In this document: one piece after another, positions 21,217-52,981 of the stretch
Layout: each line of letters opens with the position of its first letter
Position numbering within the stretch: position 1 is the first letter of the stretch
NCBI GenBank assembly: GCA_963759805.1
Contig: CAVXAT010000002.1
Span: 5,532-69,531, forward strand
Direction of reading: 5' to 3'
Source of the DNA: an uncultured bacterium
GTDB lineage: Bacteria > Babelota > Babeliae > Babelales > RVW-14
Length of the DNA stretch: 64,000 bases
Translations under genes and position numbers: made by a program
The notes under the pieces: generated by a model
Database searches by the model: none
Seen by the model: only the letters and a program-made list of their open reading frames with translations
What the model was told of the DNA's origin: nothing

Positions 21217-22146
21217 CTATACACGAAGATGAGGAGGCATAACCCGCCACTGATCGGGATTAGAAATATAGTGAACGACAACTTCGCGGTTAAAGCTGTG
21301 GCCAGTTTTAGCCGCGATTACTTTTCCGGCCAGAGATAAGCCCAACAGGCTTAAATCACCGATAAGATCAAGAACCTTATGCCTGACACACTCATCATCA
21401 AACCGTGTTTCGTTTAGAAAGCCTTCGTTACTTAGTACAACAGTGTTACCAAGCGATGTTCCCTTTGCAATCCCAAGCTTGCGCATCTGTGGAAGTTGCT
21501 CCAAAAACCCAAATGTTCTTGCCGGCGCAATATTTTGAGCAAAAAATTCTGGCGTTAATATGCATTCAAACTGGCTGCTGCCAACAAGTTTATGGGCAAA
21601 GTCCGCCGTATAAATTAAGTGAAGAGCTGGAGAATTATCTTGTGAGGTATAATTATCTTGCGTGGGATGATTGCCCTGTACGGGATGATTGTCCTGTGCA
21701 GGATAAATCTCAATAAAGCGTCCCGTTTTATCTTCAAATCTAAGTTTTTCTTTGGGGGTAATATACTTTTTTGCAACATTTTGAAATTGAAAGCCACAGT
21801 CTAAAATACCCTGAACAAATGGAGAGGCACTGCCATCCATGATTGGAATCTCGACACCATGTACCTCTATCAAAACATTATCAAGTCCGGTTGCAACAAT
21901 TGCCGCCAGCAGATGTTCTGTTGTACTCAACATCCAACCACTACTATTTTTCAAAACCGTTGCCTGCATTGCAACCTCAGGAATTACAGACCCAATTTTA
22001 AAAACATCATTGGGGAACGCCGGGTTTGTGAAAACAATGCCAGAATCTTGAGCTGCCGGCTTTAAGATAATCTTGGACAACTGTCCGGAATGAACCCCTA
22101 TTCCTTCAAAAATGACTTCGTTTTTCAGTGTGCTTTGTTGCTGCAT
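21217..22146 (-). CDS. lpxC: UDP-3-O-acyl-N-acetylglucosamine deacetylase
   Basis: TLKNEVIFEGIGVHSG, TTEHLLAA, EIPIMDGSA and HKVLDLIGDL blocks. Start set at MQQQSTLKNE. Contains a tandem hexapeptide-repeat insertion. Confidence 0.9.
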   Translation of the reverse strand: MQQQSTLKNEVIFEGIGVHSGQLSKIILKPAAQDSGIVFTNPAFPNDVFKIGSVIPEVAMQATVLKNSSGWMLSTTEHLLAAIVATGLDNVLIEVHGVEIPIMDGSASPFVQGILDCGFQFQNVAKKYITPKEKLRFEDKTGRFIEIYPAQDNHPVQGNHPTQDNYTSQDNSPALHLIYTADFAHKLVGSSQFECILTPEFFAQNIAPARTFGFLEQLPQMRKLGIAKGTSLGNTVVLSNEGFLNETRFDDECVRHKVLDLIGDLSLLGLSLAGKVIAAKTGHSFNREVVVHYISNPDQWRVMPPHLRV

Positions 22147-24556: not shown

Positions 24557-24802
24557 GTGAGCTCGATAATTCTAAGATTGATATAATGACCCAAAGCAAC
24601 GCCGCATCGTAGCACTGTATCATCCTGAATTTACCTGCCTCGCCGTAGCCACAGCATGGCGTAGGCGGGTTTCAGGCCTGTCCGAAGTGTTAAATTGCCT
24701 CCCTTAGCGCCATTTTGTCATCCTGAACTCGTTTCAGGATCCATGGATTAATAACCTTCCTATTTTTGTTGTACTTAGGTTATCGAGTTCGCATTAAACA
24801 AA
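24557..24802. repeat. MITE-like non-coding element bounded by ~20-bp imperfect inverted repeats and packed with GC-rich palindromic repeat units
   Basis: Left GTGAGCTCGATAATTCTAAG versus the reverse complement of the right end, GCGAACTCGATAACCTAAG (16/20). The interior contains the 34-nt repeat at 24715-24748 and GTAGCCAC-type units related to other dispersed repeats in the window. Confidence 0.5.
24715..24748. repeat. Dispersed 34-nt palindromic repeat, copy 1 (TTGTCATCCTGAACTCGTTTCAGGATCCATGGAT)
   Basis: Identical 34-mer at 49015-49048. Contains the hairpin ATCCTGAA-ctcg(t)-TTCAGGAT. Confidence 0.9.
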
Positions 24803-24978: not shown

Positions 24979-26105
24979 ATACATATGAGACTAAAAAGTT
25001 GAATTTTTGAATTTGCTTGAAATATAATAAAGACCTCCAGAAAACATAACAAACTTTTTAGGAGGCCTTTATTATGCAGACAAAACGTCTACACAAGAAA
25101 TACTATTATATTTCTAAAATAGATGAAAGAGATTATTCAAAAATAGTTTGGGAGCGCAAGCAAAAGCTCGAGCTATTCGATACATTAATGTGTGATGGAT
25201 GCTCGGAAGAAGTTGCCATCCAAGCAATTGGAATGTCTCGATCAAAATACTATCGATTAAAAGCTCGTTATCAAAGAGATGGCCTTGCAGGCCTTGAGAA
25301 TCAAAGTAGAAAACCACATCGCTTAAGACAACCTCAATGGCCCCCTGAAATTGAGGAAAAGGTATGTGGGATTCGAAATAAATTCCGTGTTTGGGGCAAG
25401 GATAAAATTGCTGTTATTCTTAAACGGGAATTCAATCTTAAGGTATCGATTAGCACGGTTGGACGCATATTATCAAAGCTTATAAAAAATGGAAAATGTA
25501 AAACTGTTTCGTTTTATACTGGAAAATACTCACCAAAGCCAAGAATATTTAATGATCATGCTCAGCGGTTACCAACTGGAGCCAAGAGCAAAAGACCTGG
25601 AGAACTCGTACAAATTGACCATATGACGGTTAAACTTGATTCAGGAAAAGAAGTTAAACACTTTGATGCAATGTGTCCAACGACGCACGTTGCCGTGGGT
25701 AAAGCATATCGCCAAGCAACGAGTTTAATCGCAACAGATTTTCTTGATTTTATGGTTCAGCAGCTGCCTTTCCCGCTTTTATCAGTTCAGGTCGATGGGG
25801 GCAGTGAGTTCAAAGGTGAATTCGAACAAGCCTGTAAAAGTCGCAATATTCCCCTTTTTGTTACCCCTCCGAGATCGCCTCAAATTAACGGTGCTGTTGA
25901 ACGGGGAAATGGAACCGTTAAGTATGAATTTTACAGCCTGTACGACAAAGGCGACAACCTTCAATTCATTAATGACTCACTGCAACAATTTATGAATATA
26001 TATAACAATTATCGACCCCATCGCAGTTTACAAGGACTTACGCCTATGGAATACTGTATAAAGATGGAGGTCTTTCAATCGAATTCTCAGTCTCATATGT
26101 ATTGA
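24979..26105 (+). mobile_element. IS481-like insertion sequence (single HTH + DDE transposase ORF)
   Basis: Perfect 14-bp terminal inverted repeats: ATACATATGAGACT at 24979-24992 and its complement at 26089-26102. The transposase stop sits at the right end. Confidence 0.75.
25074..26105 (+). CDS. IS481-family DDE transposase/integrase
   Basis: N-terminal HTH (MSRSKYYRLKARYQRDGLAGLENQSRKPH) and an rve core with D (VQIDHM), D (VQVDGGSEF), E (NGAVERGNG) and YNNYRPHRSL. Confidence 0.9.
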   Translation: MQTKRLHKKYYYISKIDERDYSKIVWERKQKLELFDTLMCDGCSEEVAIQAIGMSRSKYYRLKARYQRDGLAGLENQSRKPHRLRQPQWPPEIEEKVCGIRNKFRVWGKDKIAVILKREFNLKVSISTVGRILSKLIKNGKCKTVSFYTGKYSPKPRIFNDHAQRLPTGAKSKRPGELVQIDHMTVKLDSGKEVKHFDAMCPTTHVAVGKAYRQATSLIATDFLDFMVQQLPFPLLSVQVDGGSEFKGEFEQACKSRNIPLFVTPPRSPQINGAVERGNGTVKYEFYSLYDKGDNLQFINDSLQQFMNIYNNYRPHRSLQGLTPMEYCIKMEVFQSNSQSHMY

Positions 26106-26211: not shown

Positions 26212-28020
26212 ATGAAAATGTTTAAGAAAATAATATTATCGATTCTGATAGCTGGCTGCACAAGTTTTGCAGCATTTGGAGCGAAAGATTCCGGTACAGC
26301 GCCAGCAACTGCGCCCAAAGCAGATTATATAAAAATACAACTCAAGAACGGAAGGGTCCTGCATCTTCCCAAACAAGTCGCAAATATTACAAAATATTTC
26401 AACAACCCTACGCAACAAGCTATGCGCACTGGCATTGAAACCGGTGTTAAATTTGAAAATTTTGATGATAACGTCGTTGAGCTAACCTGCAGCATGATTA
26501 AAGTAATTTACAACTTGCGCCAAGATCAAGAGTCCCAAGCATACAGTAATGATACCAAAAATAAAATGCTTCAAGATATACTTAATCACGCGCTTAATAA
26601 TAAACGCACATTGCTCAAGCAAACTGATTTTGATATCAACCAAGCATGGTGCTTTGCCGATTATCTCGATGGAATTCCAGAATTAGAACAAGCCATTATG
26701 GCTGTGTTGGCCAAAAACATTTGTACACCAGAATTTCTTGATACATTCCAAGGCAATGAATTTTTATCAGATGATCCAACCAATGATCTAACCAATCAAA
26801 AATTTAGGGAGCAATTAAAAGAAGCTTTAAATAAGTATATAAAAATACATCAGCCTGATGTTTATGCGCGCATAATGCCTTACAGCTGCTCTCAAACATT
26901 GAGGTTGCGGAACGACAGCGCCTGTAGCCTATGCGTTACACCAGATGGCAAGATAGTTTCTGGATCTTTTTTTGGATCCATAACCATATGGATCTGTAAT
27001 CCTGTAAATCATAAATATAGGCTGCTTCAAACACTTAATGCTTCAATTGGCGGTCTCCCCGATCCGTGGGTGCTGAGCGTATGCGTTACACCAGATGGCA
27101 AGATAGTTTCTGGGTCTGGTAACAATATCATCAAAATATGGTCATATAATCCTGAAACCCTTCAGTACGCCCTGTCTCAAACACTTGATTCTACGGTTGA
27201 CGGCCATACCGGTTGTGTCAATTGCGTATACATTACACCGGATGGCAAGATAGTTTCCGGATCGAATGACAATACCATCAAAATATGGACCTATAATCCT
27301 GAAATCCATCAATACACGCTGTCTCAAACACTTAATTTTCCATTTGATGGCCCTGCCGGCCATACCTATTGTGTCAATTGCGTATGCATTACACCGAATG
27401 GCAAATTGGTTTCTGGGCTTTATGACAACTCCATCAAAATATGGGCTTATAATGGAGAAACCCATCAATACACCACCCTCCCTCAAACACTTGATTCTAG
27501 AGTTGGCGGCCATACCAATAGTGTCAATAGCGTATGCGTTACGCCAGATGATAAGATACTTTCTGGGTCTTCTGACAGTACCATCAAAATATGGTCCTAC
27601 AGTCCTGAAACACATCAGTACGCCCTATCTCAAACACTTGTCGTCGGTCATGTGGGCAGTGTTGAAAATGTGTGTGTTACTCAAGATGGCAGGATCGTTT
27701 CAGCACTTGAGGTCCCCCCAGGTTGGGGCGACATTATGGACTCAGCCATAAAAATATGGTCCTATAATACTGAAACCAATCAGTACGCCCTATCCCAAAC
27801 ACTTGATTCTACAGTTGGCGGTCATACCAGTTTTGTCAGGACGGCATGCATTACATCAGATGGCAAAATAGTTTCCGGGGCTAATGACAACACCATCAAA
27901 ATATGGGCGGCGCCTAATTTAACGATTGAGCAGATTATTGCACGGTTAAAAAAAGAGCTCGTACCAGCAACTCAGGTACGACAGAAACACAAACATAGGA
28001 CGCAGTCTTCGTGGAAATAA
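26212..28020 (+). CDS. Predicted lipoprotein with an N-terminal Skp1/BTB-like domain and a 7-bladed WD40 beta-propeller
   Basis: GGGAGG Shine-Dalgarno before ATG 26212. The signal peptide has a lipobox (ILIAGC). Seven ~45-aa repeats follow: C(V/I)TPDGKIVSGS.DNTIKIW.YNPE..QY.LSQTL. The Skp1-like similarity is described in the findings. Confidence 0.85.
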   Translation: MKMFKKIILSILIAGCTSFAAFGAKDSGTAPATAPKADYIKIQLKNGRVLHLPKQVANITKYFNNPTQQAMRTGIETGVKFENFDDNVVELTCSMIKVIYNLRQDQESQAYSNDTKNKMLQDILNHALNNKRTLLKQTDFDINQAWCFADYLDGIPELEQAIMAVLAKNICTPEFLDTFQGNEFLSDDPTNDLTNQKFREQLKEALNKYIKIHQPDVYARIMPYSCSQTLRLRNDSACSLCVTPDGKIVSGSFFGSITIWICNPVNHKYRLLQTLNASIGGLPDPWVLSVCVTPDGKIVSGSGNNIIKIWSYNPETLQYALSQTLDSTVDGHTGCVNCVYITPDGKIVSGSNDNTIKIWTYNPEIHQYTLSQTLNFPFDGPAGHTYCVNCVCITPNGKLVSGLYDNSIKIWAYNGETHQYTTLPQTLDSRVGGHTNSVNSVCVTPDDKILSGSSDSTIKIWSYSPETHQYALSQTLVVGHVGSVENVCVTQDGRIVSALEVPPGWGDIMDSAIKIWSYNTETNQYALSQTLDSTVGGHTSFVRTACITSDGKIVSGANDNTIKIWAAPNLTIEQIIARLKKELVPATQVRQKHKHRTQSSWK

Positions 28021-28988: not shown

Positions 28989-30293
28989 CTAACCCATCAT
29001 ATTTTCAATGTCATCAGCAGATTTGGGCAAGGCCCCACTCAGACAAACGACACCGTCATCAGCCATTGCGTAATCGTCTTCAATTCTAATCCCAATGTTC
29101 TCTGCTTGGATATAAATTCCTGGCTCGATGGTGAAGACATCGCCCGGTTGAAGCGGAATTTCGCCATTGCCAACGTCATGAACATCAAGGCCAAGAAAAT
29201 GCCCTATGCCATGCACAAAGTATTTTGAATAGCCTAACTTTTCTAAAAATTTAACGGCCTGATGGTGCAGTGATTTCTCAGGCAAATTTGGATTATTCAG
29301 ATACATTCCGGGCACGGCCAGAGATTCAATATATTTCTGTGTTTGCAACACAACATCATAAATCTCTTTCTGTCGCACGGAAAATTTTCCACCAACCGGA
29401 AAAGTCCTAGTTAAATCTGATGAGTAGTTCCCATACTCAGCACCGATATCCATAACGACCAAATCGCCGACAGCAAGCTTGTCAGTGTTGTTACAAGAGT
29501 GTAAAGTTGTTGTATTTTTACCCGTCGCAACAATGCTGGGAAATGCCGGAACTGCGCCGGCAGCCTCTTGAAAAATATACTCTATAATTGCCTGAATCTG
29601 ATACTCATACTTACCCGGCTCAATACTTTTTGCAGCAGATTGAATGGCAAGTGACGTAATTTGTGCCGCTTTATAAATCAAGTTTATTTCATGATCTTCT
29701 TTAATGCGCCTGGATTTATGAACAATGCCTGAAACATCAGCAATTGTAATTTTATAATCAGACAGCCAGGCCTGAAAGCACGAAACTAGCTGCATTTGAG
29801 TAAAATATCTTGAGTTTGTGATTGAATCCATCAATGTATAAAGAACCCCGCCAATGCCAATATTTTTCTTTATATCGGCAATAATCTCGCTGTAACGCTC
29901 AGGTGTAAAAAATGGGGCACTCGAGTAACCCTTGATTTGCGCTCCAAGATATTTAATCTGATCGACAGACAAATTTGCTTTATCGCTTTTTATGGTCAAA
30001 CCCGTTTGTACCCACTGTTCACGACTTTGACTATAAAAAGGTAGATACAAAAGATCAGTACCATTAACATCAATACCATCAAAATAGCAGCACATAACAA
30101 CTGCCGGCTCTGTTATTCCGGTTAAATAGTAAAATGATGATTCCTGTTTAAACACATGACGTGCTGATTCAAAATCTGCTATCAGCAACAACGCTCCAGC
30201 CCCACCCTTGGGGTTCAATAATTTGATCTGCTCTATAATTTTTGTTCGTCGATTTTTGAAACGATTTAATTTCTTTTCAGGCATATAAAACAT
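28989..30293 (-). CDS. pepP: Xaa-Pro aminopeptidase (M24B family)
   Basis: HGIGHFLGLDVHD, EPGIY and IRIEDD metal-ligand blocks. Start set at ATG 30293, preceded by GGGAG. The track ORF continues upstream through a GC-rich repeat to a GTG at 30413. Confidence 0.85.
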   Translation of the reverse strand: MFYMPEKKLNRFKNRRTKIIEQIKLLNPKGGAGALLLIADFESARHVFKQESSFYYLTGITEPAVVMCCYFDGIDVNGTDLLYLPFYSQSREQWVQTGLTIKSDKANLSVDQIKYLGAQIKGYSSAPFFTPERYSEIIADIKKNIGIGGVLYTLMDSITNSRYFTQMQLVSCFQAWLSDYKITIADVSGIVHKSRRIKEDHEINLIYKAAQITSLAIQSAAKSIEPGKYEYQIQAIIEYIFQEAAGAVPAFPSIVATGKNTTTLHSCNNTDKLAVGDLVVMDIGAEYGNYSSDLTRTFPVGGKFSVRQKEIYDVVLQTQKYIESLAVPGMYLNNPNLPEKSLHHQAVKFLEKLGYSKYFVHGIGHFLGLDVHDVGNGEIPLQPGDVFTIEPGIYIQAENIGIRIEDDYAMADDGVVCLSGALPKSADDIENMMG

Positions 30294-30335
30294 CTCTTCT
30301 CCCGTTTCGACTAATATCTTCTGAAACTCGCATCC

Positions 30336-30416
30336 TTCGACAGGCTCCCAGACTTCGCCCTTCCCACTCCGCTCAGGTAGCTCCGAGGGACAGGTCGTGG
30401 CTACGCCGGGCACGGC
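30336..30416 (-). repeat. 81-bp GC-rich dispersed repeat, copy A (5' of pepP)
   Basis: The reverse complement matches 41411-41491 with about 5 mismatches: GCCGTGCCCGGCGTAGCCACGACCTGTCCCTCGGAGCTACCTGAGCGGAGTGGGAAGG.CGAAG.CTGG..GCCTGTCGAA. Confidence 0.9.
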
Positions 30417-30435
30417 AGGACGAGCGCCATGAAGT

Positions 30436-30471
30436 AGGCGCGCTCGTGGTGAGCTCGTCGAACCATCACCC
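30436..30471. repeat. GC-rich dispersed repeat (GCGCTCGTGGTGAGCT.GTCGAACCATC.CCC), copy 1
   Basis: Near-identical cores at 36141-36176 and 48262-48296. Confidence 0.85.
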
Positions 30472-30488
30472 TGTGACGCGCCGGGCCT

Positions 30489-35425: not shown

Positions 35426-36277
35426 TCAAACCAACCCACCCAATCCCCGAACAATAGCCTCCAAAACGACGTGCCAGTCATCATCCTGGTTAACTCCAAC
35501 CTCAATCAAAAGGGCTGGGGCAACAATTCCACACAACGGTTTGAGCGGAATGCCGTAAAAACCCCCAAAATCAAATATTTTCTGGTTGTCTGCCCCTGAA
35601 AGTGCATTTGACAACTGTTGACCAATATTTTTTGTTCTGAAAATACTAACTTGATGCGCCTGCAAAACCGATATCATTTTAAGAGATGGGAATGTCCTGT
35701 CAACAAAATCGCCAACAGGGTCTGCCACATGCTGGTAAACATAGACCTTTGGCCTAACTGACTCTAATTTAAAAAGATGGACACTTATGAATAGATCTAC
35801 GTTTAAACGGTTGGCAAACGAGGCATTCTGAAAATCGACTATCTTTTCCCCGGGTACACGGGTCAAAACAACCCTGAAATCATACGCTCGTTCAAAAGCA
35901 CTTTGAAGCTCTTGGGCAAACCTAAACGTCGCGGCACGCTCAAAACCACTCAAGCTACGCCCCGGATCCCCCGCATGTCCGGCGGGATTGATCATAATGA
36001 CCTTCTTTGCACCCTTGAGAGAAGGATCAAGAAAGGGGGCATTAGCGTAAGCCATAAAATTAGTTGCGAAAGTAGACAACCCCGCCATCAAAGTTAATGT
36101 GATTAAAAATAGTCTTCTTGCACAACTTGGAATTTTAAAAAGGCGCGCTCGTGGTGAGCTTGTCGAACCATCGCCCGGCTTGTCCGTCGTAGCTCGAAGA
36201 GCGAAGTCGGAAGGGCGACGGGCCTGGTCATGCAAGAGATCTATTAGTCTGATTAAAGCTGATTTAAATATCTTCAT
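35426..36277 (-). CDS. N-acetylmuramoyl-L-alanine amidase-like protein (Amidase_3-like)
   Basis: VIMINPAGHAGDPGRS...RFAQELQ...VVLTRVPGE...FANRLNVDLFISVHLF follows the Amidase_3 pattern. The start is uncertain: the N-terminal 45 codons include a GC-rich repeat in frame, and the alternative start is ATG 36088. Confidence 0.6.
   Translation of the reverse strand: MKIFKSALIRLIDLLHDQARRPSDFALRATTDKPGDGSTSSPRARLFKIPSCARRLFLITLTLMAGLSTFATNFMAYANAPFLDPSLKGAKKVIMINPAGHAGDPGRSLSGFERAATFRFAQELQSAFERAYDFRVVLTRVPGEKIVDFQNASFANRLNVDLFISVHLFKLESVRPKVYVYQHVADPVGDFVDRTFPSLKMISVLQAHQVSIFRTKNIGQQLSNALSGADNQKIFDFGGFYGIPLKPLCGIVAPALLIEVGVNQDDDWHVVLEAIVRGLGGLV
36141..36237. repeat. Composite GC-rich repeat: copy 2 of the GCGCTCGTGGTGAGCTTGTCGAACCATCGCCC unit, with a degenerate copy of the 81-bp repeat nested in its TCGCCC...GGGCGA hairpin loop
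   Basis: 36141-36176 matches 30436-30471 and 48262-48296. 36177-36222 (GGCTTGTCCGTCGTAGCTCGAAGAGCGAAGTCGGAAGG) resembles CCTGTCCCTCGGAGCTACCTGAGCGGAGTGGGAAGG from 41431-41468. Confidence 0.75.
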
Positions 36278-40476: not shown

Positions 40477-40705
40477 GATAACCTCCATATTTAATAAAAC
40501 TAAAAAAACCACCATCTTTTTAAACTAAAATTTATCACTTGTAATATTATACTAGCAGACAAAAATACTAAAATCAAAGGCCCCCACCCCATTGCAAACT
40601 TGAAAAACAAAAAATATACTCTATCATCACATAAGATTTTAAATAAATTATTAAATAAACTATCCAATTGTGTGTTAGGAATTAGATGTGTGTGTTAGGA
40701 ATTAG

Positions 40706-42778
40706 ATGTCTGAATCATTGACAGAAAGTAGCTTGAAGTTTTGGGAAAAGCAGGCTCAAAAATTACCTTGGTTTAAAAAATGGAATCATGTTCTAGCATG
40801 GAATGAACCATTTGCACACTGGTTTGTTGGCGGTCAAATAAATGCCTCATACGCATGTCTAGATATTCACATTAAAAACGGATTGCAGGACAAAACAGCA
40901 ATCATCTGGGAAAGTGAGAATGGTAGCTCACAAACTCTCACATACGGCCAACTTTATGATCAAGTAAATAAATTTGCCAGTTTTTTACAAACACAGGGTG
41001 TTAAAAAGGGCGACATCATCGTCATTTATCTTCCAATGATTCCTGAAGCAATTGTGGCCATGCTGGCAGTGGCACGGCTTGGGGCAACGCATTCAGTAGT
41101 GTTCTCAGGCTTTAATACAACGGCATTAAAAGATAGAATTGTCGACACTCAAGCCAAATTCGTAATTACAACTGATGCGGCATTTTATAGAAACAAAAAT
41201 ATTGTCCCGAAATATGTTGTATCAGACGCAATCAGACAGATTAGCCAGACTGCGCATGACAATGCAGCGCAAGCAAATTTTGTTAAAAAAGTTATTGTAA
41301 TTAAGCGAACAGAAAATTCAATAACTATAAATCCCGATCTTGATGTTATTTACGACCCAAACACCTCAACGGGTCCGATGGAACCTAGCCATGCGGAATT
41401 TGTTCCCGCCGCCGTGCCCGGCGTAGCCACGACCTGTCCCTCGGAGCTACCTGAGCGGAGTGGGAAGGACGAAGCCTGGATGCCTGTCGAATCCAATCAC
41501 CCTCTTTTTATTTTATATACATCCGGAACTACAGGAAAACCCAAGGGCATCGTCCACTCAACCGGCGGATATTTAACTTATGTTTATTCAACAATTAAAT
41601 GGGCTTTTAATATCAGCAAAGATTCAATTTACTGGTGCACGGCAGACATTGGGTGGATTACGGGGCATTCGTACGTAGTCTACGGCCCCCTCATGCACGG
41701 GGCAACAATTTACATCCGCGAGGGCGCACCTGACTGGCCAACTCAGGATGTCTGGTGGAAGGCAATTGAAAAGCATAAAATTTCAATTTTTTACACATCC
41801 CCAACGGCATTACGTATGTTCATGAAAATGGGTAACGAGAATATTTTAAAACACGATTTATCCAGTTTAAAAACGCTTGGTTCGGTTGGCGAACCGATAA
41901 ACCCTGAAGTCTGGCGATGGTTCAATGATGTTATCGGACAAAAAAGGTGTCCGATAATTGATACGTGGTGGCAGACGGAAACAGGTGGTTTTATGATCTC
42001 TCCAACCGCAGGACTTAATCCTACCACAGAGCTTAATCCAATTGCAGAAATAAAACTTAAACCCGGGTCCGCAACCTTTGCATTACCGGAAATTGATGCT
42101 GACATTGTTGATTCAGGCGGACAATCCGTACCACCCGAAACCAAAGGGTTTCTTGTAATCAAAAAGCCTTGGCCGGGAATGGCAATTGGAATTCATAACA
42201 ATCCACAAGCATTTCGTGAGATTTATTGGTCAAAGTTCCCAAGCATGTATTATTCAGGCGATTATGCAATAAAAGATTCCGAAGGGTATTTCTGGTTACT
42301 TGGCCGAGCAGATGAAGTATTAAAAATCTCCGGCCATAGAATTGGAACATCAGAAATTGAAAGCATAACACTTGAACATGAAGCAATTGCTGAAACTGCA
42401 GTTATCGGAATTCCTGATGAGATAAGAGGAGAAGCAATAATTATATTCTCGATTCTCAAAACAAGTTTCACCGTGAGCATTAGCACTGAACACGAAGTAT
42501 TAAAACACGACGTATTAAAACACGACGTGTTGGAACACGAAGTGTTCAAGCAAGAAATCTTGCAAAAAATCAGAACTCAGATTGGTGCATTTGCAACTCC
42601 AAAAGAGATTCACTTTGTTGAAAGTTTACCAAAAACCCGTTCGGGGAAAATAATGCGTAGACTGCTTAAAGCAGTTGTGCAGGGTCAAGCAATCGGAGAC
42701 CTGTCCACATTGGAAGATGGAACGTCGATTGAAGAAATTCAAGCAATTTATAATATGATTAAGAAACAGTTGGGATAA
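40706..42778 (+). CDS. acs: Acetyl-CoA synthetase (AMP-forming), carrying two in-frame repeat insertions
   Basis: YTSGTTGKPKG, WWQTETGG and SLPKTRSGKIMRR. Insertions lie at 41411-41491 (dispersed 81-bp repeat) and 42488-42547 (4 x 15-bp tandem repeat). Confidence 0.95.
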   Translation: MSESLTESSLKFWEKQAQKLPWFKKWNHVLAWNEPFAHWFVGGQINASYACLDIHIKNGLQDKTAIIWESENGSSQTLTYGQLYDQVNKFASFLQTQGVKKGDIIVIYLPMIPEAIVAMLAVARLGATHSVVFSGFNTTALKDRIVDTQAKFVITTDAAFYRNKNIVPKYVVSDAIRQISQTAHDNAAQANFVKKVIVIKRTENSITINPDLDVIYDPNTSTGPMEPSHAEFVPAAVPGVATTCPSELPERSGKDEAWMPVESNHPLFILYTSGTTGKPKGIVHSTGGYLTYVYSTIKWAFNISKDSIYWCTADIGWITGHSYVVYGPLMHGATIYIREGAPDWPTQDVWWKAIEKHKISIFYTSPTALRMFMKMGNENILKHDLSSLKTLGSVGEPINPEVWRWFNDVIGQKRCPIIDTWWQTETGGFMISPTAGLNPTTELNPIAEIKLKPGSATFALPEIDADIVDSGGQSVPPETKGFLVIKKPWPGMAIGIHNNPQAFREIYWSKFPSMYYSGDYAIKDSEGYFWLLGRADEVLKISGHRIGTSEIESITLEHEAIAETAVIGIPDEIRGEAIIIFSILKTSFTVSISTEHEVLKHDVLKHDVLEHEVFKQEILQKIRTQIGAFATPKEIHFVESLPKTRSGKIMRRLLKAVVQGQAIGDLSTLEDGTSIEEIQAIYNMIKKQLG
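41411..41491 (+). repeat. 81-bp GC-rich dispersed repeat, copy B, in frame inside acs (encodes AVPGVATTCPSELPERSGKDEAWMPVE)
   Basis: Matches the reverse complement of 30336-30416. 81 bp is 27 codons with no stop. It lies just upstream of the conserved PLFILYTSGTTGKPKG block. Confidence 0.9.
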
Positions 42779-42802: not shown

Positions 42803-43387
42803 TTAAGAACGTGCAAATGTAACTAGTTTTGAATAATCTCCTTGATCTGCTAACTTCAATGCATCAATATACTGTTTTCGAATTGGTGTAGCCTTATATA
42901 AATCCTGATTTATTCCCCAACTAAAACGGGGATGTCCCAATTGCATTATAAGCAAATCAGCCATCAAGCGCGCATGTCGCCCATTCCCGTTAGGAAAGGC
43001 ATGAATCCACACTAAACGATGGTGTAATCTTACCGCAATTTCGTCATCAGAAAAAGATTTGTTCTCCAGTTGATAATTAACATCATCACAAAGTTTTTTC
43101 AACTCGACTGGAATAATAGGCCAGTCAACACCTATATTTTTCCCATAATGACGAAAGATCCCTGCCCACTTCCATGTTTCATTAAACATCTGTTTATGTA
43201 GCTGCTGAATAAAATGAACCGAAATAATATCCTTTTTTTCACGCCCCCATTTTTCGGCAGCAATAATATTTTTTTGTTCCCAAGCATTCAGTTGTTCATG
43301 AGTGGTAATATGTGTTGGGATTAAATCGGCAATTTCCTCCGGCTCGATGGGCGTAGCGCCCTCCGGATAATTAAATTTCATCATCAC
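42803..43387 (-). CDS. Fic-domain protein ('mobile mystery protein B' type)
   Basis: Fic motif HAFPNGNGRHAR (HxFx[D/E/N]GNGRxxR). It overlaps the upstream HTH gene. Confidence 0.85.
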   Translation of the reverse strand: MMMKFNYPEGATPIEPEEIADLIPTHITTHEQLNAWEQKNIIAAEKWGREKKDIISVHFIQQLHKQMFNETWKWAGIFRHYGKNIGVDWPIIPVELKKLCDDVNYQLENKSFSDDEIAVRLHHRLVWIHAFPNGNGRHARLMADLLIMQLGHPRFSWGINQDLYKATPIRKQYIDALKLADQGDYSKLVTFARS

Positions 43388-43844
43388 TCCAAAGATTTCT
43401 TGGACTCCCTTGAAGCAATTCCTCTATCAGATCATCCTCCTGTTGACGCCTCTGCTCAGAAGAAAGCCCCTGTTGTTCCAATTTCATTGAATGCTCCACA
43501 ACGCTAAGGCGTTTTCTTGCAACCAATTGCGCTCTTTCTTTTAGTATCTGATCAAAGGGCTTGTTTGGAATGAAAAAATATACGCAACGACAATTCATCG
43601 CCCTTGCAACCTGATCAAGAGCCTCTAAGGAGATAGTTCGCTCCTTTTCACGACGTTCAAATGCCATCACATTCGACTGAGTACACCCCAACCGCTTGGC
43701 AAGTTGCTGTCCTGATAACCCCAGAACTTTACGAATAACCTGAATCCATCCATTCTTGGGAACATGTTTTTGAGCTAAAATGTTAAGGTCAGTTAAGCTC
43801 GCCTGTACTTGATCACGCATCATTTTCTGAAAATTTTTTCTCAT
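43371..43844 (-). CDS. XRE-type HTH protein ('mobile mystery protein A' type), partner of the Fic gene
   Basis: HTH LSGQQLAKRLGCTQSNVMAFERRE. Start at ATG 43844, preceded by GGTGA. 17-nt overlap with the Fic gene. Confidence 0.75.
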   Translation of the reverse strand: MRKNFQKMMRDQVQASLTDLNILAQKHVPKNGWIQVIRKVLGLSGQQLAKRLGCTQSNVMAFERREKERTISLEALDQVARAMNCRCVYFFIPNKPFDQILKERAQLVARKRLSVVEHSMKLEQQGLSSEQRRQQEDDLIEELLQGSPRNLWSDDEI

Positions 43845-43967
43845 AATAATCACCTATAAGTATTAATTTAATTAAAAATTATAATCTATAAGTGATTATA
43901 TTGGAAAAATTAATATAATTAAAAGGGTTTGCTAATTTTATATATTTCTACTATTTAACAAACGAAT

Positions 43968-48198: not shown

Positions 48199-48261
48199 AA
48201 AACCCCCTTGGTTTTTGTTATCAACTAGAACTCTTCTGTAACTATGCACTTTTTACTAGCC

Positions 48262-48306
48262 CGCTCGTGGTGAGCTTGTCGAACCATCGCCCTATGGGCG
48301 ACGGGC
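48262..48306. repeat. GC-rich dispersed repeat, copy 3 (with intact TCGCCC-tat-GGGCGA hairpin)
   Basis: CGCTCGTGGTGAGCTTGTCGAACCATCGCCCTATGGGCGACGGG, intergenic between grpE and pssA. Confidence 0.85.
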
Positions 48307-49014: not shown

Positions 49015-49048
49015 TTGTCATCCTGAACTCGTTTCAGGATCCATGGAT
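49015..49048. repeat. Dispersed 34-nt palindromic repeat, copy 2
   Basis: Identical to 24715-24748. Confidence 0.9.
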
Positions 49049-49390: not shown

Positions 49391-52300
49391 ATGAAAAAGA
49401 TTTTTCATGTTTTTTCGATGTTACTGTTGTTAGGTTCGTTACAAGTTGATCTTTGCGCAATGCAGGAACCAGATGATGCAACGACTCCCGTTGAAATACC
49501 AGTAGATCATCCAAATTCCGGCCTGATAAACGGCCAGAGCATCTGTTATCTAAACGCTGTAATTCAATGTCTTTCAAATCTTAAAACTTTCAGAGAAAAA
49601 TTGTTAGCCCACGAAGACACTTATCAGAACAATCCTCTTGTTTTAAATTTAATCAGATTATTCAAAGACTTAAGAACAACCACAGAACCTGCAATACAAA
49701 ATGACACCTTGATTGGCCATGTAAAAACGTTAATCACAAATCAATCAGGAAATGCACGAGAACACTTTCAAGATGCGGATGAAATTCTAACTCTGTTGTT
49801 AGGACAAATTAACAAACCAAACAAAATTTCTTTAGAGTTACAACTTGATCAGAAAGTTAAATGCCTTGGAGCTCATGGTGCAGCCGGTTGTCAGCACGAA
49901 TCCCCAAAACATGAGACGCATGAAACAATTGCATTACCACTTGATGAAATTGCCACTCAAAATACACTTCAAGCATTGCTTGAAAGCTTTTTTACATCAT
50001 CATTCGCACATGATTATGTTTGTGATGGTTGTGGTAAAAAAAATACATCTTTTAAAACTTCTAGAATTTCAAAAAACCAAGATGAATTAATTATCACGTT
50101 AAAAAGATTCAATTCAGATGGGACCAAGATAGATACATCTATTTCATTTCCAATGGAACTCGATTTAAAGCCTTATTCAACAGATGGGCTAAAACAACAA
50201 GCCGGCGTAGATCTTTCATATGAATTAGTTGGTTTTGTTTGTCATGGCGGTAACCATTATATTTCATTTGTAAGAGATTTTGGAAATGGGGAATGGTACA
50301 TGTATAACGATTCGGCAGTCAGCGATGAAATAAATTTGCAACTTATACAAGGGATTACCACGACAGGTAGTTTTTCACTAAATTCTCAAATTTTCACACC
50401 ATACATTTTGTTTTATCAAAAAAATGGAATCGGGGGGCAAACGCTTGCTCATCCAACAGCACAACAATCTGTAGATCAAGATGAAGGCGAAGATTGGGAT
50501 TCATCAGATGGCGAGGATGAACTTCAGCCGCCAACAACTAAAGGCTTTTTTAGCTGGTTTCTTGGATGGGCTACCGGTAACAACCAAAGAGAAGACGAGC
50601 GAAGAAAACAAGAAGAGGTTAAATTGCAAGAAGAGGCGATAAAGAAACGTCAAGAGGAGAAACTAAGGATGCGAAGGGAAACTAGACTACAAGAAGAAGT
50701 GATAGAAAAACGCCAAAACCTAGGACTCATGAAAGTCGAAGCACTCCCATATTTAAATTCAGTCGTACAGTGTCTTTCGAATCTTAAAAAATTTAAGACT
50801 AAACTATTTGCAAGTGAAAATGATTATAAAGATGATTTTTTAATTCTTAGCCTTATTAATCTTATCAAAAGACTGAAGAATTCTAGCGAATCATTAGGAA
50901 ATCAAGATTTTGTAGAGCAAGCAAAGATTTTGGTGCAACAAAGTAAAAATAATGAAGTTGCACTTCAGGTGGCAGATGAATTTTTAAATTTGTTATTTGA
51001 TCGTCTGCATACCCAAGACATGGAACCTCTTAATCTCCTAATTAATATAATTACCCAGTGCATAAAAAACAAAGATATATCAGGTTGCGAATATTCTTTA
51101 GATGAAGATGGAGTTGTGCAACCCAAGACAAGCCTATGTTTTAAAGAATTAAAAAGTGTCCAAGAAATTTTGGCAAAGCAATTTTCACCTTCTTTTGATA
51201 AAGGGTACACCTGCAAATGTTGTCATAAAGCTGGAACTTCTGTTATTACACAGAAATTTTTACGCTGCCCTTCCGAATTAATAATTTCTTTACAACGATT
51301 TGATTCATCTGGAAATAAAGATTTATCGCCAGTTATTTTACCATTGATACTTGATTTGACCCCTTATCTTAGCCATGAATTACTACAACAAATCGATCAG
51401 GCTCCGTATGAATTAGTGGGCATTGTTTGTTGCAATCGAAACTCTCAATATTATTCTTACATGAAAAATATTGCATCAGATAAATGGTTCCGGTACAACG
51501 ATGAGTCCGTTGTAGAGGTCAGCAATCAAGAAATTAAAACGCTGGCAGATTCCGGAATAGATTCGCAAAATTTTGTGCCATACATTTTATTTTATGAATT
51601 AAAGGAGTCCGAATGCCATACAAGTGCATCTCAAGCGCAACAAAGTTCAACTGCAACGAAAGATCAAAGATCAAACGCTAAAAACACACAAGAAATAATG
51701 GCTCAAATGACGAAACTTTGGAATATAAAGAAGCAACAAGAACGGGACCTTAAACGTGCTCAGGGCGTTGCAAAATCGGCTGATAAAAATCTAGTTAATG
51801 CGCAGTTGGATGGAGCCGATTTAACCGATTTGGATTTGAATGGGGCAGATTTAACGGGTGCGTCTTTAATCGGTGCAACATTGGTTAGAACAAAATTGAA
51901 TGGCACAATTTTGGCCAATGCAAAGTTAAATAATGCAATTATTTCGGATGTTCAATTATGCAATGCGACACTAAAAAACACAGATTTGAATAATTCAACA
52001 ATAACGAATATAACCGCTCATAACATAACTATCTCAGATGGTACAAAATTTGAGAATGCAACAATAAGCTCGCTAAATCTAAAAAATATCAAACTACAAA
52101 ATGTGTCTTTTGCAAATGCAACATTAAAAAATATCACATTTTCAACCTCATTAATTGATCATGTAAATATGGCACACATACAAGCTGAGGAGTTATATTT
52201 AAATGAATCTTCGCTGACAAACATAGATTTCAGCAGGGCTTGCATTGTAGGTCTTGATATAAGCAATGCAAACATCATAGGAGATTGGTTAAATTTCAGA

Positions 52301-52981
52301 TATGCAACGATAAAAACGGGGTGCATTAGGGGAACAACCACATCTAGAAGACCTAGCCCTGGCGAACGCTCAGATGGCATCACAGAAAAAGAAAATACAG
52401 GACTAATAATGGATACAGTAGGCGTTTCAACACTTGTGACATCTACAGCTTTTGGTACTGTTACTATTCCTATTCCGATTGTTGGATCTGCCGCTGGATT
52501 TTTCTATGGATTGTTTTTGGTTGGAGTTGAGCTTATCATTCACGATGAATACCTCGACTCAAAAAAAGATTTTGGCGCTTCAAATATTAACAGCATTTTG
52601 CTCAATTCCGATTTTTATGGAGCATCATTACAAGACGTGATTGTGCAACATGTAAAGCTTGGTAATTGTATGAATATTGGAAGAATTAGAAAAGCAGTTG
52701 GAACCAATTTTGATAACATTGTAAGTAGCAATCCAAAGGATTTGGACGATTTAAGACACAAGGGCGCTTGTGTAAATGAAATTCCATCAGACGAATTTAA
52801 AGTACTATGGCCTACAAAAGGAAACGATCAGAAAGTTTTTTGGGTCAAGCTACTTGCTGGTGCTGCGCATGGAACCCTCTCAGGCACCATATCAAAAGTT
52901 GAGACAAATTTACGGGACAAACAACAAGAGGCAAAGTATAAGTCTTTTATATCTGAAGAAATACAAAAAACAAGAAAATAA
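49391..52981 (+). CDS. Signal-peptide protein with tandem USP/UCH (peptidase C19) deubiquitinase-like domains, pentapeptide repeats and a bilobed hydrophobic segment
   Basis: Domain 1 has the Cys box GLINGQSICYLNAVIQCL, zinc-ribbon CxxC pairs, the His box YELVGFVCHGGNHYISFV and WYMYNDSAV. Domain 2 has EALPYLNSVVQCL (Cys replaced by Pro) and YELVGIVCCNRNSQYYSY (His lost). Residues ~800-960 are A(D/N)LxX-type pentapeptide repeats. The hydrophobic hairpin is VGVSTLVTSTAFGTVTIPIPIVGSAAGFFYGLFLVGVELII. Confidence 0.85.
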   Translation: MKKIFHVFSMLLLLGSLQVDLCAMQEPDDATTPVEIPVDHPNSGLINGQSICYLNAVIQCLSNLKTFREKLLAHEDTYQNNPLVLNLIRLFKDLRTTTEPAIQNDTLIGHVKTLITNQSGNAREHFQDADEILTLLLGQINKPNKISLELQLDQKVKCLGAHGAAGCQHESPKHETHETIALPLDEIATQNTLQALLESFFTSSFAHDYVCDGCGKKNTSFKTSRISKNQDELIITLKRFNSDGTKIDTSISFPMELDLKPYSTDGLKQQAGVDLSYELVGFVCHGGNHYISFVRDFGNGEWYMYNDSAVSDEINLQLIQGITTTGSFSLNSQIFTPYILFYQKNGIGGQTLAHPTAQQSVDQDEGEDWDSSDGEDELQPPTTKGFFSWFLGWATGNNQREDERRKQEEVKLQEEAIKKRQEEKLRMRRETRLQEEVIEKRQNLGLMKVEALPYLNSVVQCLSNLKKFKTKLFASENDYKDDFLILSLINLIKRLKNSSESLGNQDFVEQAKILVQQSKNNEVALQVADEFLNLLFDRLHTQDMEPLNLLINIITQCIKNKDISGCEYSLDEDGVVQPKTSLCFKELKSVQEILAKQFSPSFDKGYTCKCCHKAGTSVITQKFLRCPSELIISLQRFDSSGNKDLSPVILPLILDLTPYLSHELLQQIDQAPYELVGIVCCNRNSQYYSYMKNIASDKWFRYNDESVVEVSNQEIKTLADSGIDSQNFVPYILFYELKESECHTSASQAQQSSTATKDQRSNAKNTQEIMAQMTKLWNIKKQQERDLKRAQGVAKSADKNLVNAQLDGADLTDLDLNGADLTGASLIGATLVRTKLNGTILANAKLNNAIISDVQLCNATLKNTDLNNSTITNITAHNITISDGTKFENATISSLNLKNIKLQNVSFANATLKNITFSTSLIDHVNMAHIQAEELYLNESSLTNIDFSRACIVGLDISNANIIGDWLNFRYATIKTGCIRGTTTSRRPSPGERSDGITEKENTGLIMDTVGVSTLVTSTAFGTVTIPIPIVGSAAGFFYGLFLVGVELIIHDEYLDSKKDFGASNINSILLNSDFYGASLQDVIVQHVKLGNCMNIGRIRKAVGTNFDNIVSSNPKDLDDLRHKGACVNEIPSDEFKVLWPTKGNDQKVFWVKLLAGAAHGTLSGTISKVETNLRDKQQEAKYKSFISEEIQKTRK

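Follow-up and report, generated by a model that had tools for sequence, protein, structure and literature searches.

How does a strongly GC-rich segment come to lie, in frame, inside an intact gene of an AT-rich bacterium? The question is raised by acs, which encodes acetate–CoA ligase, in a stretch of 64,000 nucleotides from an uncultured bacterium of the Babelota (GTDB order Babelales; GenBank assembly GCA_963759805.1, contig CAVXAT010000002.1, positions 5,532 to 69,531), referred to here as the window. The original prediction, made from the sequence alone, held that an 81-bp, 27-codon GC-rich dispersed repeat behaving like the Rickettsia palindromic elements (RPEs) had entered acs and recurred just 5' of pepP. 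Our analysis points to a shorter unit of 69 nt, and we consider it probable (at roughly 0.6) that this unit is a GC-rich, imperfect-hairpin, non-autonomous mobile repeat that is moved in trans and is selfish or neutral within Acs. Unless a locus is named, coordinates are positions in the 64-kb window; L-numbers denote comparison loci from other contigs or genomes, and P-numbers public proteins.

An in-frame insertion in acs that orthologues lack

Three features define the insertion site:

40706..42778, plus strand: acs, the host gene, encoding acetate–CoA ligase (690 aa), intact and with all three Pfam domains of its orthologues.
41411..41479, plus strand: copy A, the 69-nt GC-rich hairpin element, between acs codons 235 and 236, adding residues 236-258 (AVPGVATTCPSELPERSGKDEAW).
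41480..41491, plus strand: native acs codons (M)PVE, ATG CCT GTC GAA, the target-site flank outside the element.

The Acs translation runs ...EFVPA, then AVPGVATTCPSELPERSGKDEAW, then MPVESNHPLF..., and the open reading frame (ORF) continues straight through copy A (...EFVPAAVPGVATTCPSELPERSGKDEAWMPVESNHPLFILYTSGTTGKPKG...), which scores 93.9 bits against R1, a covariance model of the 69-nt element. We aligned 16 Acs sequences, namely that of the window and 15 orthologues, a check that the original prediction had itself proposed. The 23 insert residues are missing from all 15 orthologues, seven of which are 82–87% identical in the alignment, and every orthologue aligned shows ...FVPA-VPVESNHP... 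at the insertion point. The same gain is visible in the DNA: L001, L002 and L005 read CCC GCM directly followed by GTN CCN GTC GAA, whereas the window reads CCC GCC, 69 nt, and then ATG CCT GTC GAA. The relatives' VPVE codons are GTA CCG GTC GAA or GTC CCA GTC GAA, so that the window protein differs from theirs by 23 additional codons and a V-to-M change; V261 and E262 are invariant across the alignment. The in-frame insertion thus stands as first described, while the gain relative to orthologues is 23 codons, not 27. The contrast in composition between element and host also holds: the element has ~70% G+C and the window ~39% (35–42%). The remainder of Acs shows no damage and is conserved, which rules out a pseudogene.

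The insertion is lineage-specific and occupies a length-variable loop of Acs, as judged from the alignment. It closes a segment that differs widely in length between Babeliales Acs orthologues, four residues ahead of the strand that leads into the P-loop motif YTSGTTGKPKG. PDB homologues give no alignment across query residues 179-258. An AlphaFold2 model, moderate as a whole (mean predicted local distance difference test score, pLDDT, 64), shows residues 235-270 as coil at pLDDT <50 and so lends weak support to a disordered loop at the insert. Acs would be made with a 23-residue additional loop and the V-to-M change, and insert-spanning peptides would cover EFVPAAVPGVATTCPSELPER and DEAWMPVESNHPLF.

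The gene neighborhood is conserved, with the order recR-yidC-amidase...acs-DUF2608-ftsJ-htrA... kept in four related contigs (L001, L002, L005 and L021). For Acs and PepP alike, the closest relatives come from metagenome-assembled genomes, several of them named Candidatus Babeliales, Dependentiae or TM6. The public pepP call of the window (P0121) belongs to a contig of 226,291 nt.

Other small repeats occur in and around acs. Positions 42014-42049 hold a lineage-specific in-frame 18-nt tandem duplication (LNPTTE/LNPIAE) and positions 42489-42543 a lineage-specific in-frame 15-nt tandem repeat in 3.7 copies (HEVLK HDVLK HDVLE). At 40669-40709, an exact 20-nt tandem duplication, TGTGTGTTAGGAATTAGATG, in two copies doubles the acs ribosome-binding site and ATG; the upstream ATG is out of frame.

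The mobile unit is 69 nt long

A find-repeat comparison within the window pairs 30336-30416 with 41411-41491 over 81 nt, 77 of them (95%) complementary (blastn E = 1e-32). The pair reported originally is therefore real, with four mismatches where about five had been counted; the two copies share one orientation relative to the neighboring gene and are inverted with respect to each other on the plus strand. The length of the element is what changes. The last 12 nt of the acs match, ATG CCT GTC GAA, are the VPVE codons of acs and so fall outside the element, and alignment to empty sites indicates that the mobile unit is 69 nt (41411-41479), the other 12 nt being native flank at both sites.

Three sites could be compared in the filled and the empty state: acs, the palindromic repeat PE (described below) and an intergenic site upstream of acs in relatives. 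At the last of these, L001, L016 and L019 carry an 83–84% identical 69-mer ~45–110 nt upstream of acs, while L002, L004 and the window are empty (...CATCGC^AAA..., with ^ marking the junction). In all three comparisons exactly 69 nt have been gained, with a junction ambiguity of at most 1–2 nt. None of the three shows a target-site duplication, and the element has no terminal inverted repeats, its ends GCCGTGCC... and ...GAAGCCTGG not being complementary; it thus lacks both hallmarks of a classical miniature inverted-repeat transposable element (MITE).

A second copy nested in a palindromic repeat upstream of pepP

The other copy in the window lies within a larger GC-rich block:

30348..30416, minus strand: copy B of the 69-nt element, intergenic and nested in PE; 67/69 identical to copy A, R1 score 92.4 bits.
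30317..30485, minus strand: composite GC-rich block of PE (CCCGGCGCGTCAC..GATGGTTCGACGAGCTCACCACGAGCGCGCC-loop-GGCGCTCGTCCT^GAGCCTGTCGAAGGATGCGAGTTTCAGAAGA) with copy B at ^, filling the spacer between a 797-aa gene and pepP.
28989..30293, minus strand: pepP, Xaa-Pro aminopeptidase, true start ATG at 30293, the repeat lying at least 55 nt upstream.

PE is a second repeat and is strongly palindromic; its core in L005 folds at -24.3 kcal/mol (z = -6.8). In L005 the internal site of PE is empty (...GGCGCTCGTCCT^GAGCTTGTCGAAGGATGCGAG), in the window the 69-mer sits precisely at ^, and in L033, an unrelated contig, the same ^ is occupied by a 36-nt hairpin with the same termini. The flanks of the L033 composite match those of the window composite. 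L005 and L033 show that the 12 nt flanking copy B belong to PE itself; they share 10 of 12 bases with the acs flank.

The original prediction left it undecided whether copy B extends pepP artefactually or genuinely. Copy B is indeed open in the same frame as copy A, and the public pepP call (P0121, 474 aa, 28989-30413, minus strand) starts at a GTG inside the repeat and is ~40 codons over-long. PepP orthologues have 428–429 aa and start MFY..., and the ATG with its GGGAGRAGAG ribosome-binding site is conserved in L021 and L025. The 474-aa call is, on this comparison, an annotation artefact, and copy B lies upstream of the pepP coding sequence; of the two options offered, the artefactual one holds and the genuine one does not. 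The spacer before pepP measures 195 nt in the window as against 11 nt in L021 and 21 nt in L025, where it follows an 803-aa gene, and the 169-nt GC-rich composite at 30317-30485 is absent from relatives.

Family members and other GC-rich modules

Copies of the 69-mer stand at non-orthologous sites in different genomes, with R1 scores of 89–99 bits and pairwise identities from 51/69 to 67/69. Copies A and B (67/69) are a recent duplication, and their split from the L001 copy (57–58/69) is older, matching the 82% divergence level of the host gene. A scan of GTDB-representative contigs with a 21-mer gave a single true match, L016; the 11 other matches were set aside as chance, ten lying in high-GC genomes and one in a coding region of Saccharimonadales. 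An exact-pattern scan of JGI metagenome contigs returned three loci, a design that probably missed diverged copies. There was no match to the 69-mer in the viral contigs scanned, to the 81-mer in plasmids (blastn) or to the element in Rfam (whole window at gathering threshold; copy B block and L018 tRNA locus in E-value mode). An exhaustive HMMER protein search with a 55-aa repeat peptide gave four weak matches; a word-indexed protein search with the same peptide gave none, a suspicious result given that methionyl-tRNA synthetase (MetRS) of L005 shares many words with it. A literature search for Dependentiae or Babeliales repeats and for repeat-encoded peptide strings found no such repeats described in Dependentiae.

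Two diverged 69-mers, at L018 3580-3721 and L020 581-736, stand directly 3' of tRNA-Ala(cgc) and tRNA-Leu(taa), respectively, in low-GC metagenome contigs. In both, the terminal TGG of the element coincides with the tRNA CCA; an adjacent tRNA-Cys in L020 has no element. ARAGORN detected no tRNA in the window.

GC-rich modules occupy at least five places in the window, the following two among them:

36107..36241, minus strand: in-frame repeat insertion in the amidase_3 gene, 45 codons (135 nt), in the signal-peptide n-region; absent from L001, L002 and L005.
48258..48306, plus strand: one PE arm and a small CGCCCTATGGGCG hairpin in the spacer that separates grpE from a CDP-alcohol phosphatidyltransferase gene.

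In the amidase_3 insertion a short hairpin-family variant (~36173-36227) comes first and one PE arm (36139-36172) after it; R1 matches the insertion at 36162-36221 (36 bits, E = 7e-7). The flanking sequences AGACTAATA and AGACTATTT may be a 9-nt target duplication, and a 7-nt inverted repeat (TCTTGCA/TGCAAGA) also flanks the insertion, so this composite may have moved as a classical MITE. The spacer that holds the module at 48258..48306 is 79 nt long in the window and 30 nt in L001. In L005, an uninterrupted PE lies in frame (21866-21960, minus strand) in the MetRS linker before the C-terminal tRNA-binding domain (GDGSTSSPRARLLDGARPELVEGC), where MetRS of L001 has an unrelated short linker. 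Judged from these alignments, at least two genes besides acs, those for the amidase and MetRS, carry related in-frame repeat insertions in this bacterial group. In public protein sets, small ORFs run across the PE composite, among them a small secreted ORF in L033.

PE-like sequence also occurs farther afield. A PE-like palindrome is found in L027, the Comamonas endophytica plasmid NZ_CP106882 (244380-244440), in the spacer between Ku and DUF3606 genes, and the GGTGAGCTTGTCGAACC arm motif recurs in five IMG/VR loci (L028-L032), of which L028 and L031 are the same sequence, a run of tandem motif variants. These occurrences indicate that the arm motif has spread across phyla.

Additional GC-rich modules lie at 24630-24760, upstream of pyrG, and at 49015-49048, the exact 34-mer TTGTCATCCTGAACTCGTTTCAGGATCCATGGAT being repeated 24.3 kb apart, and a related ...GATCCATGGATTAATAA stands behind a hairpin variant in L005 (2922-3020). 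The public ENA contig of L033 ends in an Illumina adapter, AGATCGGAAGAGCACACGTCTGAACTCCAGT (1266-1296), into which the called ORF P0243 extends.

Fold and reading frames of the element

Five diverged full-length copies share, in the acs-sense orientation, a consensus long imperfect hairpin. In a set of seven sequences, these five together with two shorter variants, 94% of consensus cells are paired, compared with 32–53% in slid controls. Four pairs have changed on both sides, and one of them is seen as UA, CG and GC. We take this as moderate evidence that a hairpin has been conserved in the 69-mer, which would then be a weak, weakly palindromic hairpin backed by a few compensatory changes.

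The window variant is open in three of six frames, that of acs included. The copies in L001, L018 and L020 carry a TAG in the acs frame (CCGTAGCTAC, where the window has CTCGGAGCTAC), and the open frame is therefore a trait of this sublineage, copy B included, and not a family-wide adaptation.

How the element may have reached acs

The comparison of filled with empty orthologous sites establishes the insertion, its boundaries, its nesting within PE and its presence or absence from one relative to the next. The explanation we favor is that the 69-mer moves as a discrete unit, with neither target-site duplication nor terminal inverted repeats, and that one copy landed between two acs codons. Its persistence there would owe to a length of 23 codons, to the stop-free frame of this lineage's variant and to a site in a length-variable loop. 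The 69-mer would be one of a set of mosaic GC-rich modules, comprising hairpins of 36, ~55 and 69 nt together with PE arms, that occupy the intergenic spacers of this clade and now and then become fixed in frame in genes. The mover, acting in trans, would be an enzyme of the REP/REPIN-RAYT or IS200/IS605 kind that handles folded single-stranded DNA and somewhat prefers a target like ...Y^G(N)GCYTGTCGAA, and the insert would be selfish and neutral in the protein rather than functional. Such a preference is suggested by the acs site (GCC^GTGCCTGTCGAA) and the PE site (CCT^GAGCYTGTCGAA), which share 10–11 of 12 bases in the same register, far above chance, a similarity that points to either target preference or homology assistance. 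In a small sample, the flank 3' of the element (acs sense) starts with G(N)G at the three sites that have empty comparators and with GNGCYTGTCGAA at two.

Several observations weigh against this explanation. The 69-mer folds no better than shuffled sequences (z from -0.05 to +0.94 as RNA and from -0.7 to -1.6 as DNA), and the covariation comes from just seven sequences in an alignment fitted to the model. A tblastn search of 322 kb of DNA, with IS200 TnpA and RAYT queries, yielded no transposase candidate, and a regular-expression scan of the window ORFs gave no Y1/RAYT transposase. The sole transposase in the window is an IS481 family ORF (25074-26105, plus strand; rve_3, HTH_32, LZ_Tnp_IS481); IS481 transposases are of the DDE type and make target duplications. 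The L001 site is without the TGTCGAA motif, so that the target preference rests on two sites. Few copies are present in the data searched (two in the 64 kb, and a handful of exact-pattern matches among GTDB representatives and JGI metagenomes), and the 23-residue insert peptide is a prediction from the DNA.

The likeness of the two target sites could instead reflect homology-assisted copying, by gene conversion or template switching rather than transposition, from a PE-hairpin composite such as copy B. The exchange would have relied on microhomology that ancestral acs (TTCCCGCCGTGCC / GCCTGTCGAA) shares with the junctions of the donor (GTCCTGCCGTGCC / GCCTGTCGAA). The similarity of copies A and B does extend 12 nt past the 69-nt insert (10/12 identical), the inferred ancestral acs site matches the donor left junction at 11 of 13 positions and the right flank at 10 of 10, and the proline codon CCT occurs in the window alone, relatives having CCG or CCA. 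Crossovers within these homologies, however, predict a gain of 66 nt, whereas 69 were gained, with an extra GCC; the ATG derives from neither partner (GTG in acs, GAG in the donor); and a 69-nt unit was also gained at the PE and L001 sites, the latter without such homology. We regard this as an unlikely origin for copy A.

Also doubtful is a structure- or sequence-directed site-specific element, in which a dedicated recombinase or guide places the hairpin beside motifs resembling tRNA 3' ends (TTCGA...NCCA). Such a mini-element, placed without duplication, would be of a new kind in Dependentiae. Its natural targets would be the CCA ends of real tRNAs and, in the cross-phylum PE, the pseudo-T-loop/NCCA arms, with the VPVE codons of acs an accidental mimic; its lengths of 36 and 69 nt would be constrained to whole codons, making off-target insertions in genes such as acs survivable. 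This proposal draws on the two diverged copies beside tRNA-Ala and tRNA-Leu, where the TGG end of the element and the tRNA CCA coincide, on the resemblance of the PE arm GGTTCGACAAGCTCACCA to a T-loop and NCCA end, and on the common register of the PE and acs insertions relative to GCYTGTCGAA. Against it, TCGAA lies at a different distance from the junction in tRNA than in PE, the motif is missing from the L001 site, and the tRNA cases number two, both from sister metagenomes and without empty tRNA sites for comparison. Local hopping is a related, similarly doubtful possibility: the single relative-lineage copy from unbiased scans lies ~45–110 nt upstream of acs, and the divergence of the element (83–84%) equals that of the host gene (82%).

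A repeat-induced misassembly of the metagenome contig is very improbable. The exact Acs protein has no public record, as would fit a metagenome contig lacking independent confirmation, but the acs sequence on either side is contiguous and stays in frame, the copies differ at four positions, the insert is precisely 23 codons at a codon boundary, and related in-frame insertions occur in the independent assemblies L005 and L033. Finally, relatives might have lost a segment that is ancestral to Acs, or the insert might be a functional loop specific to this lineage, the sequence upstream of pepP then being an acs-derived copy. This idea can draw on the variable length of the region just ahead of the insert but is effectively refuted by the insert's absence from 15/15 orthologues, its 70% G+C in a gene of 39%, the family members at unrelated non-coding sites with a stop in the acs frame, and the PE origin of the 12-nt flank of copy B (L005, L033).

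Other classes of inserted sequence were considered and rejected. An intein or intron is ruled out by the small size and the lack of motifs, templating by a diversity-generating retroelement or retron by the lack of a reverse transcriptase and by mismatches that are not adenine-specific, and an integron attC site by the lack of R'/R'' cores. A model with a 5-nt core or target duplication, G(T/A)GCC, fails to account for 3 nt both in acs and in PE and was also discarded.

Other features of the window

Between acs and the DUF2608 gene, overlapping ORFs at 42803-43853 (minus strand) encode a Fic/DOC protein and an HTH_3 protein. Relatives run directly from acs to DUF2608, and this pair is therefore a lineage-specific insertion, possibly a toxin-antitoxin-like module. 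The 1196-aa product of the gene at 49391-52981 (plus strand) matches ubiquitin C-terminal hydrolase (UCH) in two stretches and contains pentapeptide repeats; it looks like a eukaryote-like effector as in amoeba-associated bacteria. Tandem repeats of 147–150 nt (NTIKIW-type, WD40-like) lie within a coding region at 26900-27935.

Implications and comparison with known systems

Dependentiae include parasites of amoebae. With the repeats described here, selfish DNA inside protein-coding genes would now extend from Rickettsia and fungal mitochondria to this group, a hint that reduced, AT-rich genomes of intracellular bacteria have time and again tolerated, or failed to purge, GC-rich hairpin repeats in protein loops. 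For annotation, such repeats corrupt automated gene calls, as in the ~40 surplus codons of pepP and the small public ORFs that read through them, and they make proteins from metagenome-assembled genomes look more novel than they are. A search for the mobilizing enzyme has concrete starting points in the clean gain of 69 nt, the nesting within PE, the target motif common to two sites and the copies next to tRNA genes.

RPEs are repeats of ~100–150 nt that form in-frame fusions in housekeeping genes (Ogata et al. 2000, as summarized in PMC10969869). The two systems have in common small non-autonomous repeats that stand both between genes and in frame in unrelated housekeeping genes of obligately intracellular, AT-rich bacteria, where the added peptide forms a loop compatible with the fold. 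In-frame insertions that add a tolerated peptide to unrelated genes were found here in acs, the amidase gene and MetRS of L005. This part of the original analogy holds. On palindromicity the picture is mixed: single folds of the 69-mer are unremarkable (DNA z again -0.7 to -1.6), 94% of its consensus pairs are kept and four covary, and PE itself is strongly palindromic. We do not claim RPE membership for the 69-mer, which belongs to another phylum, probably has no sequence relationship to RPEs, is shorter (69 nt vs ~100–150 nt), strongly GC-rich and weakly palindromic, and has a stop in the acs frame of its family consensus. Unlike RPEs, the elements here are mosaic and nested, with a hairpin inside PE.

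Small repeats that carry ORFs or fuse in frame with genes are also known among MITEs, namely ERIC, BOX, QMITE1 of Coxiella and the MITEs of Anabaena (PMC10969869). They, too, are non-autonomous and now and then intragenic and in frame. Classical MITEs, in contrast to the 69-mer, have terminal inverted repeats and target-site duplications, for which the 135-nt amidase insertion is the sole candidate here. IS200/IS605-derived palindrome-associated elements likewise have neither feature, and they enter beside a short, specific target at one flank; for the 69-mer such a target may be the G(N)G start of the 3' flank, in a small sample of sites.

REP, BIME and REPIN sequences are GC-rich imperfect palindromes in mosaics, extragenic by definition and mobilized by RAYT (Y1 HUH) transposases; the tetranucleotide GTAG is typical of REP feet, at the 5' side, a cognate RAYT gene is usually flanked by the repeats, and REP-RAYT pairs are lineage-specific. 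The elements described here likewise form mosaics of GC-rich imperfect palindromes without terminal inverted repeats or target duplications, the 69-mer falls within the REPIN size range, and PE is a REPIN-like doublet of inverted arms. The motif CGTAGCCACG, which contains GTAG, is invariant in five copies; it lies off the foot of the predicted main stem, and not every copy has it at a hairpin foot. Unlike REP sequences, copy A and the insertions in the amidase and MetRS genes are intragenic, and the occurrence of PE arms across phyla (Comamonas plasmid, IMG/VR contigs) is atypical of REP-RAYT pairs. In anatomy the elements resemble REP/BIME/REPIN mosaics, and by sequence they probably belong to none of the systems compared here.

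Yeast mitochondrial GC clusters carry flanking AG/TAG repeats and show unidirectional conversion. These mobile clusters are GC-rich palindromes of 30–80 bp in AT-rich DNA that fall into classes and subclasses, form arrays and are optional in VAR1/rps3 (PMC4464245). The window modules share with them the GC-rich palindromic form and size, the insertion and deletion subclasses, the tandem and mosaic arrays, the mostly intergenic placement and the optional presence in a protein gene whose product size is altered. The clusters differ in being organellar and in having unrelated consensus sequences, and the likeness in behavior is one of analogy, without homology and between different kinds of genome. 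The 69-mer is, in our assessment, a new family of selfish GC-rich hairpin repeats able to sit in frame in genes, in a phylum new to such elements, and by analogy its behavior would match that of the yeast GC clusters even more closely than that of the RPEs.

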